A stretch of DNA of 64,000 nt from an uncultured archaeon (GTDB taxonomy: Archaea > Asgardarchaeota > Heimdallarchaeia > Heimdallarchaeales > Kariarchaeaceae): positions 1 to 64,000 of the forward strand of contig CAZYCQ010000010.1 in assembly GCA_964645535.1 (NCBI GenBank), given 5' to 3'. How positions within the stretch are numbered: the first letter of the stretch is position 1; each line of letters opens with the position of its first letter. The translations under genes were made by a program, and so were the position numbers. The notes below the pieces were generated by a model. It made no database searches and was not told where the DNA came from. It worked only from the letters and a program-made list of their open reading frames with translations. Below are positions 1 through 8,914 of this stretch, one piece after another.

Positions 1-922
1 AATTTATTTCTCCTTTTTTGGTGAAGTTGAGAAAAGAGAGGAAACTGTAGAAATTAAAATTCTCTCGAAACAATGTTGGTTCACCTTGAGCGAAGAATTC
101 TGTAAGACATTCTCTTCTACAAAGAGTAAATCTAAATTTCAGCATAATTGAAATAAACTGTTTTTCTTTATCGCAGGGATATTAAGAACTTCTAGCATTG
201 CGATGTAATCCTTGCATGTCTTTGCAGTTTTTTTAGATTTTTTTGAGTTCTAAAGTATTAAGTCTTGATTTATTGAATTTAATCTTTTTTCTTAGAAGGA
301 TTTAATCTTGCTGTACCAACTTTCCAGCCCAATATCAACACACCGTATTTTGAATGAATGTCCACTTAATAACTTTCAATTCTTTTACAAGACGATGAAA
401 TCATTTTTTCTTATCTTCTTATTCCAATTGGCATCAGAATTTATGGCAATAAGTATATCAAAATAATTTGATGTAACAGAATTGATAATCTTATTGCAAT
501 TTTTCTTTTTCATGTTTTTTTCATAGCAAAAAAGATTAACATTGGCCAAGCTAGGAAACGATGAAATCAAAAAAATTCGACCTGTCTTTTCTTTTACAAA
601 GATGAAAATTTGTTTGTTCCCATTCATTTCTCGAATGTTGTTGACTGCAGAGTTCTTTTTGGCATTTTCGACTATGCAGTTTCTTCTCAATACCCTCATC
701 TGCTTGTTAGGATAAATAACTGGGAAAATACAAAATTGATAACAATGATGTCTTCTTTACAAATTTTTTATAATTAAGAAATTTTTGTGTATTAGACTTT
801 TTGATGTTTTTGCAAAAAATCCAATTTCGATTGACAATTGTAATTTGATTGAAAATCTATTAGTCAAGGCTTGAGAGTTGGGATGTTAATTGGGGAAATT
901 CTTGAGAAATCATGATAATTGC

Positions 923-1828
923 TTATTCTCCAAGAAGGTTTTTGAGGTCTTCTTCTGTAAATTCAGGAAAGAGAATAAGAAGGACCTTTCTTTTCAGTTC
1001 ATTGCTGGGTCGCATTTCATTTGAAATATTGCTGAGCAAGTCAATAAGCAAATTTTCTTTTATTTCTGTTTTTTCAAGCTGAAGAACATCGAAAAAAGCG
1101 TTCCAACCGATTTCATTGATGATCTGTTTGATTCCGATTTCTTCAGCCACTCGTTTGATTCCAATTGTTTCAACAGCCGCTTTAATATTTAAAGACATCG
1201 GATCAATGGGTCTGTCAAGTTTATTCGCGATAGTCAACAGTTTTTCGCCATATAGAAAATATCCTATAGAATTGATAAAACTATCGTCATTTTGGATAGA
1301 ACGTTCAAAAGTTTGTTCAATGGATTTTTGGCTTCCGAAGAGGCCTAACCAATATGTGTCTTCATTTTTGGTCAGGTCATCAATTTTGAGAACAAGGAAA
1401 TGAGGGAGGTTTTTTCCATCTCCTTCGTAAATTCCTGGTTCTCTTTCCTTAAGATTGAATTCCTGCCTTATTATTTTTGGAATGTTTAATTTTCCTCCAA
1501 GTATCATGACACAAGAACCATGATGATGGTTCAATTTTAAATTGACTTTTGATTTTTTTCCATATCCATGAGTTGTTGAGATATATGTGAAGAATTTCCC
1601 TGCTAGGTCATTAAAATTTCCCGCAGATACCTTGTCTCGATTGCTTTTGAATTCACCTATCAAGAACAGCTTGGCTCTTTGGAAAGGAAATGGCTTGGTC
1701 TTTAGATCCTGAATCATGAAATCGATTTGTTGATTGGAAACACTCAGTTCAACCCCAACATCAACTTTGATTCCCTTTTCTCCAAGTTTTAATTTAAGGA
1801 TATTTTTGAATGAGAGATCCCACGCCAT
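923..1828 (-). CDS. PD-(D/E)XK nuclease-fold protein, Rpn/ISNCY transposase-like, with C-terminal 9-aa IG repeats
   Basis: QIDFMI...IGEFKS (D...ExK), PGIY, W-L-x-L-F; C-terminal IGIKRVAEE/IGIKQIINE/IGWNAFFDV. Confidence 0.55.
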   Translation of the reverse strand: MAWDLSFKNILKLKLGEKGIKVDVGVELSVSNQQIDFMIQDLKTKPFPFQRAKLFLIGEFKSNRDKVSAGNFNDLAGKFFTYISTTHGYGKKSKVNLKLNHHHGSCVMILGGKLNIPKIIRQEFNLKEREPGIYEGDGKNLPHFLVLKIDDLTKNEDTYWLGLFGSQKSIEQTFERSIQNDDSFINSIGYFLYGEKLLTIANKLDRPIDPMSLNIKAAVETIGIKRVAEEIGIKQIINEIGWNAFFDVLQLEKTEIKENLLIDLLSNISNEMRPSNELKRKVLLILFPEFTEEDLKNLLGE

Positions 1829-2005
1829 AATATTGCAATATTGTATTTGATAGGGGGATTAAATATTTACGTAAATCAATTACCAAGAAATTCAATGATA
1901 TGAATGACTGGCTAATGAATATTTTATCAGAATCTTTGTCTCATTTTCCAGCATTCAATGGTTGATTTCGCGTTACATATATCTTGATACGGATTTCATA
2001 AGTTA

Positions 2006-3166: not shown

Positions 3167-3204
3167 GCTAGTGTTTATTATCAGCAAGTCCCATTCTCGA
3201 AAGG

Positions 3205-4155
3205 ATGGCAATCATTGAACTGGCTAAATCAGGACGGGCAACATGCAGAACCTGCAAGGGTAAGATTGAAAAGGATACTCCACGTGTTGGGGTGGAAAAT
3301 GTTTTTCGAAAAGATGGAAAGGAGTATATTAGCTATAAATGGCATCATTTTGATTGTGCTCTTTCAAAGATTCCTGAAATAGTGGCTGAAGCAGATGGGT
3401 ATGAAATTCTCTCAAGAGAAGACAGGAAGCGTTTTGATGAGTTGATTGAGTCACTTAATCGTTCCCCAACTGATTTTATTCCCATAAATGAGGTATCAAT
3501 TGACCATCCTCGTGGTAATTTTGTGGGCCATGTAGTTCGTGTCTTTGGATCTCGTGATCTTGAAACCCCTGACGGTGAGGTTAGGGAAGGACGGATTGTT
3601 CAGTTACAAAACGCTGATAGACGTGTCAAGATCATTGTATGGGAAACGAAACGAGAAATTACAAAAGGTGACACCATGTATATCATCAATGGAGAAGTTA
3701 TGATAGGTGAAGATGGTAATCCTGTGATTCATGTCGGTCTTGCGGAGGGTTCCCATTTCTCATTGAATGACAAACCAAAAATCAAAATTGTTGAGAAATT
3801 TATTTCCAATGCTTGGGAACGCCCTCCGAAAAAAGTCTGCAAATTCACTCTTGCCAAATCAAGTCGTGCCACTTGCCCAGTTTGTGAGGAACCTATTGCC
3901 AAGGGTTCTGTCAAGGTGATCCAACCCATCTGGATAACCAATGAGGATAGCAATGCCAATTTTGCAGGAGACCGGAGCTTCCATCCTGTTTGTGTGGAAA
4001 AGGCAGAACATGGCAAGGAAATCATGTTGGAAGCCATTACTCATCTTACCCTTAACGATCTTGAATCCCATGACTCCTTTCTTAGGCAATTGCTTGATCA
4101 ATTGGAAAGTCTTGAATTAAAGTCAACGTTGCAACAGGTTTTGGGCTTGACGTGA
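3205..4155 (+). CDS. PARP-type zinc finger / OB-fold / PARP-type zinc finger protein
   Basis: ELAKSGRATCRTC...KWHHFDC and TLAKSSRATCPVC...FHPVC; central RPA/SSB-like segment GHVVRVFGSR...VKIIVW...KGDTMYIING. Confidence 0.8.
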   Translation: MAIIELAKSGRATCRTCKGKIEKDTPRVGVENVFRKDGKEYISYKWHHFDCALSKIPEIVAEADGYEILSREDRKRFDELIESLNRSPTDFIPINEVSIDHPRGNFVGHVVRVFGSRDLETPDGEVREGRIVQLQNADRRVKIIVWETKREITKGDTMYIINGEVMIGEDGNPVIHVGLAEGSHFSLNDKPKIKIVEKFISNAWERPPKKVCKFTLAKSSRATCPVCEEPIAKGSVKVIQPIWITNEDSNANFAGDRSFHPVCVEKAEHGKEIMLEAITHLTLNDLESHDSFLRQLLDQLESLELKSTLQQVLGLT

Positions 4156-4185
4156 CCTTTATAGTCTATTTCCATATTTTAACCT

Positions 4186-4854: not shown

Positions 4855-5136
4855 TTATTTTTTCTTGAGATTTTCGAGAATATCGGTGTCAATAGTCTGG
4901 ACTTTGGGCTTTGCGTTGAGGGTCTTTCCGATGGAATTGTCAGGAGTAGCCTCAATGTCCTGATGTGTCCGATCAAAGTCGGCCTTGGTCGCTTTGCCGA
5001 TGCATTCCGAGATAACCTTATCTCCGATTCTTCGGCTCTTATACCAGTAGTAGTAATCCTTTTGTTTTACTACCCCGGATTTGTTTTTCCATGTGCGAGT
5101 TATCTTTCGTACATAAACCATGATATCAAACTCCAT
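4855..5136 (-). CDS. Small basic protein resembling the N-terminal beta domain of IS1634-type transposases or mobile-element DNA-binding proteins
   Basis: YVRKITR...KDYYYWYKSRRIGDKVISECIGK; start moved to ATG 5136 (5121 is an alternative). Confidence 0.5.
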   Translation of the reverse strand: MEFDIMVYVRKITRTWKNKSGVVKQKDYYYWYKSRRIGDKVISECIGKATKADFDRTHQDIEATPDNSIGKTLNAKPKVQTIDTDILENLKKK

Positions 5137-5536
5137 TGTTTGGTTCAAGTCCTCTCGAGCCTTTCGCCGCGAAGGTCTTGAGCTATTATTATAAGAAATT
5201 TCATGTAATTTAAAAGTTACCTTTGAAGGGAAAAACAAGGTTTCGATTTTTCACACTTATTCCACACCTCTGACTTTGAGAACGGGTTTGAGACCGATTT
5301 TATGTACAAAGTTAAAGCCTAATTATGTGATGAAAAATTGATTTTGCCACAATCCGTTGGGGAAAATTTCCTTCCTCTATGGAATTTGGAGTGAATGTGG
5401 ATTTCCAATACATCACCTCCCCAACTGAAAAAATTTGTTGTCGGTTTAATTGGCGCTTATCAGCATGTTTTTCTTAGGTCTAAGAATTTTTCTCCTTCAG
5501 TCTAAACATAAGAAATAAATTAGATATGATGTTTCA

Positions 5537-6010
5537 ATGCCTATGGGCATTTCAGAGGCATCACCTCTTGCAATCACTGGCTTCATCACTATTTTTTTAG
5601 GTTTTTTGGTGCTACTGTCGGGAATCCTGATGGCAAAACGAAAGGACTATTCAAAGCACAAAAACCTCATGTTATCTGCTGCATTCATTAATTCCGTTTT
5701 TATCATGCTTTATGTTGTTCGATTTCTGACAGGCGATGAAACCCATTTTCAAGGGCCTTCAGTTATTCGGAATTTTGTATATTATCCTATTTTGATAGTT
5801 CATATCCTGTTTGCCCTTATCTCTATTTATCTCATTTTCAATCATTTGAAAGCAACCTATTCGCATGTCCAATGGCAGGAAAAGAATCCCTATTTCGGAA
5901 AGGATTATCGTAACATTCATCGTAGATATGGTCGGATCACGTTCTTTTTCTGGTTTACATCCTATATTGGGGGCATCACCGTATTCATTATGTTGTATAT
6001 CCTATTTTGA
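5537..6010 (+). CDS. DUF420 family membrane protein
   Basis: 4 TM; HKNLM, YYPILIVHILFA, HRRYGRITF, GITVFIMLY. Confidence 0.85.
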   Translation: MPMGISEASPLAITGFITIFLGFLVLLSGILMAKRKDYSKHKNLMLSAAFINSVFIMLYVVRFLTGDETHFQGPSVIRNFVYYPILIVHILFALISIYLIFNHLKATYSHVQWQEKNPYFGKDYRNIHRRYGRITFFFWFTSYIGGITVFIMLYILF

Positions 6011-7774
6011 TTTGCCTATGGTAAGTGTTTTTGCCAGTTCCTGAATTTCTTCAACCGTTGAAACACCTTCAGGAACTGATTTGTCGTCTCTTCTGTTTCC
6101 GGTATATCTTGGAAAACGAAGTGAAAGAAAATCTCCTGTCGGCGAAGGGACGGAATGGACTGGTGATTCTGTAATTTCAGCGGCTGCCACTTCCAAAATG
6201 ATTTTTGGTTTTACCCAGATGTCGGGTACCAGATTGGAGATTACATCTTTTGGTTTTGTCGGAACCTTTAACGACTCCATTTCATTTGTCAATTGTTCCA
6301 TATCCTGTTCGGTCAGTCCAGCCCCGAGCCTACATATCGTTCGATAAACCTCTTCCTGTTCATCATAGACAGCCATGAGAAGGGTTCCGTAAAATCCTGC
6401 ACGTTTGCCTTTTCCTTTCCAACCTCCTACAATAACAAGATCCAAGGTATCCCCGATAGTTTCAGTATAATCTGCCTTGTATTTCATCCAGAGAAATGAT
6501 CGTTTTCCAGGTTCATAAACTGAGTTTTCACCAATGGATTTCACCATTATTCCTTCAAGCTTACGGTTTTTGGCTTCAAGCAAGGATTCATCTATGTCTT
6601 CTGGAGTTGAACATGCCCATGATGGGCTGATCTCAAACAAATTCTGTGGAGGCAAGATTTTTCGTAGAAGGTCAACTCGTTCTTTAAGCGGCTTATTCAT
6701 GAGATTCTGATTGTCTGCATAGAGGATATCAAACACAAAGACCTTGACTTCCACTTCTTTTTGTATCTCTTTTATTCCATAGACTCTTCTTCTGTTGGTT
6801 AATTTCTGGAAACTTTCCATCTCTCCTGTTTGGGAATTATAGGCAACAATCTCTCCATCAAGAATTGCCGAATGATCTCCTAGGGCTTCCTTGATTCCAT
6901 CGATCACTTCAGGAAAGATTGAATTATATGATTCCTCGTTTCTTGACCAAAGGTTAACTGATTGTGGAGAATAATGTATCTGTATCCTGAAGCCATCATA
7001 TTTAGTCTCAATTTGGCATTGTCCTTCCATCCTCTCCCAGATATCTGTTGCCGTGGTTGCACGTTGTGGAAGCATTGGCATGATTGGAATTCCCACTTTT
7101 GGATTCTTCAGCTCTTCAATTCCTGTTTTGCCTTCTTTTAAAGCGGTTTGAATGACCAAGCCTGTATTGCTCCTTACTGCAAAAGCAGTATCAAGCTCTT
7201 CAATAGAGATTCCCGTTACATTGGAAGTGGCATCCAGCCATGTGGAATCTTTTGCCCCAAGCCTCATTTTTCCAACAAGGGTTCTGACAAGATATTTCCT
7301 TTCTAAAGGACTCATGTCCCGAAGAAGGTTAACTGCAATGTTGGTTTTTTTGTTTTCGGAATCTTTTCCTGAAACAGAAGCTATTTTTTCAAGCTCATTC
7401 CAAACCTCGAGAATTGTCCAAATTTTACTTTCTGTTTTATTGTCAAAGAATGAATCCAAGGTTGTTTGCTTGCCTTTATCCTCCAAATTTTGGATTATGT
7501 CGCCCAAATCTCCAATAACTTTGAACTGTTCCTCAATTTCATCAAGGGGGTGGGCAGTAAGGGATGCAAGAATCTTCATTACCTGTCGTTCCTGAAGACC
7601 TAGAACCAGCATGTCATATTTCGGTCCCAACTCACCAGTGGAAAGATAAATTGCAGGGGGAATCTCTTCAAGAAGGAGTTCCGAGAGGAGTTCCTCTAAA
7701 ATGGCGGTCATTTCAAGTCTTTTGGAGGTTCTCTCTATTCTTGCAAACCAGTCACAGAGTGTTCTGAATTCCAC
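6002..7774 (-). CDS. lig: ATP-dependent DNA ligase
   Basis: KYDGFR motif I, LDGEIV, EGIMVK, WMKYK, DLVIVGG, LRFPR; probable GTG start 7774 with TTTTATAT box upstream (ORF track start 7846). Confidence 0.97.
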   Translation of the reverse strand: MEFRTLCDWFARIERTSKRLEMTAILEELLSELLLEEIPPAIYLSTGELGPKYDMLVLGLQERQVMKILASLTAHPLDEIEEQFKVIGDLGDIIQNLEDKGKQTTLDSFFDNKTESKIWTILEVWNELEKIASVSGKDSENKKTNIAVNLLRDMSPLERKYLVRTLVGKMRLGAKDSTWLDATSNVTGISIEELDTAFAVRSNTGLVIQTALKEGKTGIEELKNPKVGIPIMPMLPQRATTATDIWERMEGQCQIETKYDGFRIQIHYSPQSVNLWSRNEESYNSIFPEVIDGIKEALGDHSAILDGEIVAYNSQTGEMESFQKLTNRRRVYGIKEIQKEVEVKVFVFDILYADNQNLMNKPLKERVDLLRKILPPQNLFEISPSWACSTPEDIDESLLEAKNRKLEGIMVKSIGENSVYEPGKRSFLWMKYKADYTETIGDTLDLVIVGGWKGKGKRAGFYGTLLMAVYDEQEEVYRTICRLGAGLTEQDMEQLTNEMESLKVPTKPKDVISNLVPDIWVKPKIILEVAAAEITESPVHSVPSPTGDFLSLRFPRYTGNRRDDKSVPEGVSTVEEIQELAKTLTIGKSK

Positions 7775-7795
7775 AATCTGTCTTGGAATATAATC

Positions 7796-7866
7796 ATATA
7801 AAACAACCTGATAGACTTTGAACAATGATTCAAGGTTTTTGGTCATTAGATAATATCTTTATAAAG
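7796..7866. promoter_or_regulatory. Divergent archaeal TATA-box promoters for lig and the GIFT gene
   Basis: TTTTATAT on the minus strand ~25 nt before GTG 7774; TTTATAAA at 7858 before ATG 7889. Confidence 0.55.
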
Positions 7867-7888: not shown

Positions 7889-8914
7889 ATGAAAAAAGTG
7901 AGGCAGGTGGGCTTTGATATCTCACAAGGCCAAGGGATTCTCCTGACAGAGAAATTCCAGAAGCTTCAATCCTATTTTATCTCTAATCGTTTTCTTGTCC
8001 AAACGCTTCGCAATAGGTTAGATCTTGAAAACCTCGATCAATTGGACCTCTTGGTCATTCTTTATACAACAGGTTGCAGATATTCGGAAATGGAGAAACG
8101 CGCGCTCATCAATTATGTCAGACAAGGTGGAAACCTCCTTCTACTTGCAGGTGAACTCAGGACAGAGGATGAAATTGATCGGTTAAATGAATTGGTTAAG
8201 GAATTTGGAATTCAATTCAAAGCGGGAGTCATCTATGATCCTTCATCCAATTTCAATCAGGATCCATCAACTATCTTGGTGATGCCGACAGATATTGTAC
8301 CAAATCCCCCTAGGGTAGACCATATCATCATGCAGAATGCCATAGCCATTACGACAAAACCCCAACAATCACTGCTGATCACCAGTCCTTCTGCATCAGG
8401 AGGAATGCAGACAACTTTGGCCAAATCCTGTGATGATCAACGGGGTAAGGTGATTGTTGTGGGTTCATTGTCAATATTTGAAGATTCAACCATTGGATTG
8501 CTGAATGAATCAAATAGGCTTTTGCTGAAGAAATATGTCGACTGGCTTGTAGGTGAATATGATCCGCTTAATGAACCTGTACTTACAGAACAAGAGGAGG
8601 AGACTCCCTCCAATGAACCGGAAACCGAAGATGAGATCCTTAGCGCGGCATCCCAGAAACTCATTGAAGATTTTATGAAAGAGGTGGATGTCGAGGAAAT
8701 CTCGTCTGAACTGGGAAAAGACAACTTCAATGTGGAAGACCTCACTGTAAGGATTTTAAGGGCTTTTCTTGCAAATGCCATTAAAGAAAGCAAGGAGATA
8801 GAAGCACGACGGTCTCGCCCAATCCTGACAATAGAGGGCATGGATCAGATTATGTTGATGCTCTACAATATCAACAAGACTTTGGAAAAAATAGCAGAAA
8901 GACAGGAGGAATGA
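7889..8914 (+). CDS. GIFT-domain (IFT52/GldG/DUF4350-like) protein with acidic helical C-terminal tail
   Basis: VGFDISQG, LDLLVIL...YSEMEKRALINYVRQGGNLLLL, LNELVKEFGI, GKVIVVGS..IF...N..L...VDWL. Confidence 0.75.
   Translation: MKKVRQVGFDISQGQGILLTEKFQKLQSYFISNRFLVQTLRNRLDLENLDQLDLLVILYTTGCRYSEMEKRALINYVRQGGNLLLLAGELRTEDEIDRLNELVKEFGIQFKAGVIYDPSSNFNQDPSTILVMPTDIVPNPPRVDHIIMQNAIAITTKPQQSLLITSPSASGGMQTTLAKSCDDQRGKVIVVGSLSIFEDSTIGLLNESNRLLLKKYVDWLVGEYDPLNEPVLTEQEEETPSNEPETEDEILSAASQKLIEDFMKEVDVEEISSELGKDNFNVEDLTVRILRAFLANAIKESKEIEARRSRPILTIEGMDQIMLMLYNINKTLEKIAERQEE

Follow-up and report, generated by a model that had tools for sequence, protein, structure and literature searches.

The open reading frame at positions 3205–4155 of the window (the whole 64,000 nucleotide stretch of DNA analyzed here, which contains Asgard marker genes detected by Pfam) raises the question of what a protein with two PARP-type zinc fingers, an OB fold between them and no enzymatic domain does in an archaeon. 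PARP-type fingers are the front-line nick sensors of eukaryotes and their prokaryotic history has hardly been discussed. A survey of ADP-ribosylation systems reports no PARP in archaea (PMC4245714).

The ORF list and its translation give a 316 amino acid reading frame on the forward strand, as the sequence-only reading of this locus had described. The order of domains is zf-PARP, RPA-type OB fold, AWxRP linker, zf-PARP and terminal helix, and Pfam, the pLDDT-90 model and the structure searches agree on this layout. The features are as follows, with the basis of each in parentheses.

3205–4155, forward strand: whole gene, encoding the 316 aa zf-PARP / OB / zf-PARP protein, P0001 (ORF translation, 17 full-length homologues, AlphaFold2 model)
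3205–3456, forward strand: PARP-type zinc finger 1, residues 1–84 (Pfam, phmmer, VIA, conservation)
3466–3783, forward strand: RPA-type OB fold, residues 88–193 (VIA, Foldseek, NCBIfam, hhalign)
3784–3840, forward strand: basic linker, residues 194–212, with the motif F-x-S-x-A-W-x-R-P (W204, P207) (conservation; coil in the model)
3841–4110, forward strand: PARP-type zinc finger 2, residues 213–302 (second Pfam stretch, domain model, Foldseek, VIA)
4111–4152, forward strand: terminal amphipathic helix, residues 303–312 (secondary structure of the models, conservation)
3174–3181, forward strand: TATA-box-like element TTTATTAT (read by eye from the sequence)

Judging from the alignment, the finger gene is a real gene and not a chance pattern, because 17 homologues that display 32%–79% identity conserve the zinc ligands and the key basic residues. 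The closest relatives are P0002 and P0003, with 78%–79% identity. The center of TTTATTAT is about 27 nt upstream of the ATG of the finger gene, which suggests transcription from a promoter of its own, with an mRNA that has a short leader or none. The next gene downstream has a TATA-like element of its own, i.e. TTTATA at positions 4158–4163, also read by eye. A scan for bacterial-type promoters and terminators, a type of scan that is ill-suited to archaea, gave results at chance level.

The AlphaFold2 model of the whole protein, with the 17 homologues as input, has a pLDDT of 90.4 and a pTM of 0.72. When the whole model is used in a Foldseek search, PARP1 F1F2 on a single-strand break (2n8a) is the first match and Pyrococcus abyssi RPA is the next. 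The fingers and the OB fold that had been called from the letters are therefore both recovered by structure search. Pfam shows no catalytic domain in the 316 aa protein, as had also been noted from the sequence, and Pfam and VIA show no recognizable protein-recruitment domain. The whole protein is mildly acidic (pI 6.1) and every folded domain is neutral to acidic.

The zinc site of finger 1 is C14-x2-C17-x30-H48-x2-C51 and is preceded by AKSGRATC. That of finger 2 is C224-x2-C227-x32-H260-x2-C263 and is preceded by AKSSRATC. The two PARP-type fingers with an AKS.RATC signature that had been read from the sequence are thus borne out by the zinc-site motifs, and also by Pfam and by structure matches. 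Pfam zf-PARP (PF00645) matches the protein in two stretches (E-value = 2e-22, 80.2 bits against a cut-off of 39.3), the first of which is at residues 5–79. In the zf-PARP search of the genome, finger 1 by itself scores 57 bits and finger 2 by itself scores 28.5 bits, the latter being below the cut-off. A phmmer search of solved structures places PARP1 Zn1/Zn2 at the top and the ligase III finger lower (E-value = 2e-4). Finger 1 (residues 1–83) aligns with PARP1 Zn1 (3oda) with a VIA-align Z-score of 11.2, an rmsd of 2.1 and 30% identity.

Finger 2 together with the tail was modelled separately (pLDDT 94.5), and the top Foldseek match of finger 2 is PARP1 Zn2 (3ode). In VIA all leading matches of finger 2 are PARP1 Zn1/Zn2 or the ligase III ZnF (Z-scores of 7.7–6.0; the next unrelated structure is at 5.5). 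The top seven are all zf-PARP domains, with Z-scores of 7.7–7.3 to 4av1 and 3odc over 82–86 residues. On the evidence of the model, finger 2 is confirmed as a zf-PARP domain despite its sub-threshold Pfam score. The VIA alignment of finger 2 spans model residues 12–106, including the helical half of the fold, and by VIA the models of both fingers display the beta-sheet as well as the helical half. A reading of the C-terminal helices as a separate partner-binding domain was rejected, since these helices match that half of the PARP finger. Only the last helix (residues 303–312) is extra to the finger fold; it is outside of the range aligned to PARP fingers and has no fold match of its own.

The zinc site C-x2-C-x28-32-H-x2-C is conserved in the family. 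In each site, ligands one to three are found in all 17 homologues, and the fourth ligand (C51 and C263) is Cys in 16 of the 17 and His in one. Residues that are invariant in the 17 aligned homologues are C14, C17, H48, C224, C227, H260, R11, R27, R221, K237, K142 and P207. Near-invariant residues are F34, W204 (kept in 16 of 17), P241, W243, D156, N188 and L309. The linker at residues 194–212, in which W204 and P207 are found, is coil in the AlphaFold2 model with a pLDDT of 82–86. In homologue P0012, both fingers have His as the last zinc ligand (CCHH rather than CCHC).

PARP1 residues R18 and R122 grip the phosphate backbone of DNA (PMC8150716). Both align with R11 of finger 1 in the phmmer alignments, and R221 of finger 2 matches the same position; R11 and R221 are both among the invariant residues. 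The loop that stacks on bases in PARP1 has a counterpart here. A Lys is found at the position aligned to the PARP1 stacking residue F44, and the nearest conserved aromatics, F34, Y41 and Y44, are in the same hairpin.

The middle segment had been read as an RPA-like OB fold and this reading holds. Residues 90–192 align with Pyrococcus abyssi RPA (8oej_D) with a VIA-align Z-score of 12.3 and with human RPA70 (1jmc) with a Z-score of 10.8, and VIA and hhalign together show a five-stranded RPA-like beta-barrel. Foldseek also matches the segment to archaeal RPA OB domains. At the sequence level, residues 98–196 match P. abyssi replication factor A weakly in a phmmer search of solved structures, and the NCBIfam replication factor A models match the OB stretch with E-values of 5e-4 to 3e-3. 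No Pfam OB model is above threshold on the middle segment; thus the Pfam check of the sequence-only reading was positive for zf-PARP and negative for OB.

The genome's true RPA is a separate gene, which encodes 710 aa and has a Pfam Rep_fac-A_C match. The family profile at residues 91–183 matches an RPA OB of this protein (hhalign E-value = 1.5e-5). It also matches the OB repeats of approximately 700 aa open reading frames in relatives, with E-values down to 5e-11, and these resemble the genome's own RPA in length and repeat pattern. Within the OB fold K142 is invariant, and W146 is present in 13 of 17 homologues, with an aromatic residue (W or F) in 15 of 17. W146 closes strand 3 as an h-h-W motif, and this motif aligns with the genome's own RPA in hhalign as well. 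We take the W146 position to correspond to the base-stacking aromatic of the RPA70 domains. At the second position where OB folds classically have an aromatic residue, the 316 aa protein has Gln and 12 of 17 relatives have Tyr or Phe.

The OB fold is an insert in the linker between the fingers, because OB-less relatives join the fingers directly. In P0019 and P0022, which are about 205 aa in length, finger 1 is followed by the AWxRP motif and this is followed directly by finger 2; both proteins share the AWxRP motif and the tail with the OB-bearing protein. A second case is found in another Heimdall family. P0034 (372 aa, UCE14218.1) has flanks that are both 57%–63% identical to an OB-less two-finger protein, and has an OB of approximately 110 aa at the same point between the fingers. 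This OB is of a different type and matches Pfam Ssb-like_OB at 2e-13. Against the OB profile of the 316 aa protein family it scores 0.7 bits, whereas RPA OBs score 12–40 bits. It is 61%–65% identical to a stand-alone OB protein of approximately 195 aa in the same genome and in a neighboring genome.

The simplest reading of these sequences is that a single-strand-DNA-binding fold was apparently inserted twice, independently, between two break-sensing fingers. Alternatively, the older fusion may represent deep divergence of a single ancestral insert. From the two apparently independent fusions we infer that the fingers and the OB fold act on one substrate, and the recurrence of the fusion is the strongest computational argument for a single shared substrate.

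Other features of these relatives can be mentioned here. P0034 (L037:6600–7715, forward strand) and the two-finger protein at L034:7612–8412 (reverse strand) have an extra conserved C-terminal segment of approximately 55 residues, ...GVPF..V..A.E.GL..G.YFEPSPG.IQKL. By eye, this segment, with which the two-finger proteins of that family end, resembles a small helical or winged-helix module. P0020 (363 aa, on a 1980 bp ENA contig) is missing the first half of finger 1 and has approximately 78 unrelated residues instead. The replacement displays a GEAPG...G.PF pattern that by eye is like uracil-DNA glycosylase family 4, and it has no Pfam match. A chimera, a frameshift and a real fusion are all possible origins of P0020.

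An exhaustive search of 1.84 billion representative proteins shows about 16 full-length clusters (309–333 aa) plus fragments. The family distribution was counted in 41 relatives. The full architecture is present in 10 of 11 other genomes of the source genome's own family within Heimdallarchaeia, with several copies truncated at the ends of contigs; the exception is G001, an own-family genome that is 82% complete, in which it was not detected. Among 400 Asgard genomes no other occurrence of the full architecture was detected at an E-value of 1e-25 or better, the sole exception being a shorter finger plus OB form in the sister family. There is one copy per genome in the rows listed and the neighborhoods are varied.

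The zf-PARP domain itself is present in 99 of the 400 Asgard genomes. Tandem two-finger proteins of 265–276 aa are found in one Heimdall family, and the two-finger core is the unit that is conserved across Heimdall lineages. A second and wider Asgard zf-PARP family, found in two other Asgard families, consists of proteins of about 231–258 aa with a single C-terminal finger and an N-terminal region of about 150–180 aa that has no Pfam match. The zf-PARP search gives these at the following positions.

L031:7246–7941, forward strand: zf-PARP protein of the 231–258 aa family
L035:7730–8449, reverse strand: zf-PARP protein of the same family
L035:9006–9785, reverse strand: zf-PARP protein of the same family

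One closed genome has two copies of this family 1.3 kb apart. In a closed Heimdall genome, a 613 aa open reading frame (L029:6693–8534, forward strand) has an N-terminal zf-PARP match (35 bits); its remaining approximately 550 residues have no Pfam match and are not a ligase.

The sequence-only reading did not know this architecture as a described protein. Database names are only "hypothetical protein" or "PARP-type zinc finger-containing protein", and no paper on prokaryotic PARP-type fingers, with or without an OB fold, was found in the literature. As far as found, the zf-PARP / OB / zf-PARP architecture is rare and undescribed. The occurrence of PARP-type fingers in 99 of 400 Asgard genomes and the second OB fusion, of the SSB-like type, are new here.

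The finger protein resembles several known systems in part. Like human PARP1 Zn1 plus Zn2 (2n8a, 4av1, 3oda, 3odc) it has two fingers per chain with CCHC sites and a conserved grip Arg. Unlike PARP1, it is without Zn3, BRCT, WGR and catalytic domains and is not a PARP enzyme, it has an OB fold in place of the flexible linker between the fingers, and it has Lys at the F44-aligned position. Searches of the source genome, which is 89% complete, also gave no PARP or WGR domain; this is weak evidence, as the PF00644 control was silent in every control genome. DNA ligase III alpha has a finger of the same fold (1uw0), which senses nicks in that enzyme, however it combines one finger with a ligase core, whereas the protein described here has two fingers, no core and no conserved link to a ligase gene.

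The middle segment is like archaeal replication factor A/RPA (P. abyssi 8oej and 8aa9, and the genome's own 710 aa RPA) in fold and in detectable sequence kinship. The protein is not an RPA proper: a single OB is found between the fingers, and there is no tandem array and no Rep_fac-A_C. The top-scoring sequence matches outside of the family are to plant ZDP, a polynucleotide 3′-phosphatase with several zf-PARP fingers (P0021 is named ZDP). ZDP-type multi-finger proteins target nicks and gaps. Unlike the finger protein, plant ZDP is eukaryotic, has a PNK3P phosphatase domain and is without an OB. The stand-alone two-finger proteins of Heimdallarchaeia (265–276 aa) and those of bacteria, which are mostly from Myxococcota and about 180 aa in length, are similar in being enzyme-less tandem fingers; they differ in the absence of the OB insert, and are uncharacterized as far as found.

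The function favored here, with moderate confidence, is that of a non-catalytic sensor of gapped DNA or of single-strand/double-strand junctions, in which the fingers would cap duplex ends and the OB fold would hold the single strand. We infer that the protein binds DNA, that it has a substrate preference and that it may have a partner. The targets would be duplex interruptions that expose single strand, i.e. short gaps, resected or overhanging ends and single-strand/double-strand junctions. Each finger would grip the backbone through its conserved Arg/Lys pair, as PARP1 Zn1/Zn2 do, and the hydrophobic loop of the finger would cap the exposed duplex end. The OB fold takes the place of the short linker of the two-finger relatives, and is therefore proposed to bind the single strand between the duplex ends or next to them. 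The protein might then mark or protect gap and junction sites and hand these over to repair or replication factors, possibly through the last helix. The distribution data and the second, apparently independent fusion make a gap or junction sensor more plausible.

Several properties count against a gap sensor: the protein is mildly acidic, unlike many DNA binders, Lys is present at the F44 position, the second OB aromatic is replaced by Gln, no Pfam OB model is above threshold and no repair gene is conserved as a neighbor. The gap specificity is a guess, in that binding by PARP-type fingers extends to intact DNA and other structures. A housekeeping role fits better than a mobile or defense role, because the gene is present in 10 of 11 relatives, the neighborhoods are varied and PADLOC gives no match for the finger protein or its neighbors.

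Other explanations of the locus are considered improbable to different degrees. The sequence-only reading had proposed an adaptor for the neighboring ligase, which would act in trans in place of the cis finger of human ligase III and would stimulate nick sealing. The ligase (6002–7846, reverse strand) has its edge 1847 bp downstream of the finger gene, is the sole ATP-dependent ligase detected in the genome, and displays only the Pfam domains DNA_ligase_A_N/M/C, i.e. it is a standard three-domain ATP-dependent ligase without a finger; the distance of about 1.9 kb and the absence of a finger had both been read correctly. In addition, the ligase III ZnF resembles finger 2 structurally (Z-score of 6.0). 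However, the finger gene and the ligase gene are not on the same strand. They are separated by three genes (nitroreductase, a small conserved ORF and DUF420), and each of the two apparently has its own TATA-like element. In relative G003 the ligase and the finger homologue are 183 kb apart on one contig, and in G002 they are on separate contigs. The available flanks of the homologue, i.e. about 10 kb per side in G003, 8.5 and 10 kb in G010, and 4 and 1.2 kb in G009, contain no ligase. The homologue search, which is weak evidence on this point, found no longer fused homologues, including any ligase fusion. The ligase III-like arrangement, where a finger is fused to or encoded with a ligase core, is not present. 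The proximity of the two genes is treated as coincidence and the ligase adaptor is regarded as quite unlikely. Thus of the overall interpretation made from the sequence, the domain reading stands and the tie to the ligase does not.

An end-capping factor, which would shield ends, nicks and gaps from nucleases or ligase, or would delay repair, without recruiting repair proteins, is unlikely, although the isolated two-finger fragment of PARP1 behaves as a break-shielding factor. The absence of an enzyme and of a recognizable recruitment domain, and the conservation of the two-finger core across Heimdall lineages, would suit such a factor; the sequence evidence is however the same as that for a gap sensor, and the near-universal presence in the family fits both. 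The kinship of the OB fold with RPA OB repeats, its closest relatives, and the shorter finger plus OB form in the sister family suggest an RPA-like accessory of replication, with the fingers anchoring the protein at primer-template or Okazaki junctions. This is very unlikely: there is a single OB without Rep_fac-A_C, a full 710 aa RPA is already present in the genome, and the natural OB-less forms indicate that the fingers and not the OB are the core. A binder of another target in gene regulation (RNA, a structured DNA regulatory site or chromatin) seems highly improbable. RNA binding is also known for OB folds and zinc fingers, and the protein is not basic and has no repair context, however the structural neighbors of the fingers are all DNA-break binders and the DNA-grip arginines are invariant.

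The PARP-type finger is common in Heimdallarchaeia, which are placed close to the eukaryotes, and it is usually found as an enzyme-less tandem pair like PARP1 Zn1–Zn2. If the proposed binding to gaps or junctions is true, the finger protein would be a simple and tractable model of break recognition without ADP-ribosylation, and a candidate, open to testing, for the source of the eukaryotic module. If the proposal is false, the protein would be one more lineage-specific DNA-binding protein. A further idea, which is doubtful, is that the Heimdallarchaeial two-finger zf-PARP proteins represent the stock of the eukaryotic tandem-finger sensor of PARP1, ligase III and ZDP, with the OB form being a dedicated gap or junction sensor on RPA-type substrates. 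There would then be an archaeal pathway of single-strand-break and gap sensing without ADP-ribosylation.

With regard to the neighborhood, the idea of a conserved operon was rejected; the one neighbor that recurs, and this within the genus, is a small DUF6788-like gene convergent to the finger gene. The flanks of relatives show no repair gene that is kept as a neighbor. The small open reading frame convergent to the finger gene in the window (4855–5238, reverse strand) probably starts at an internal Met, which would give a product of about 92 aa. Its counterparts in two relatives share 83% and 71% identity with it, a higher conservation than that of the finger protein, and they too adjoin the finger homologue. 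It has no Pfam match, and Atlas features point to an archaeal DUF6788-like protein (score 0.88–0.90), as a lead only. In G003 a RusA-type Holliday-junction resolvase gene (L023:5835–6377, reverse strand) is about 3.6 kb from the homologue; none was seen near the finger gene in the window. The first 2000 nt of the window (1–2000) have a low GC content, 0.32 compared with about 0.40 elsewhere, and the 301 aa open reading frame in this stretch (923–1828, reverse strand) is matched by neither Pfam nor PADLOC. The gene at 7889–8914 (forward strand), which is divergent from the ligase, displays Pfam matches to the IFT52 GIFT domain (E-value = 5e-10), ABC_transp_aux and OST48_N.
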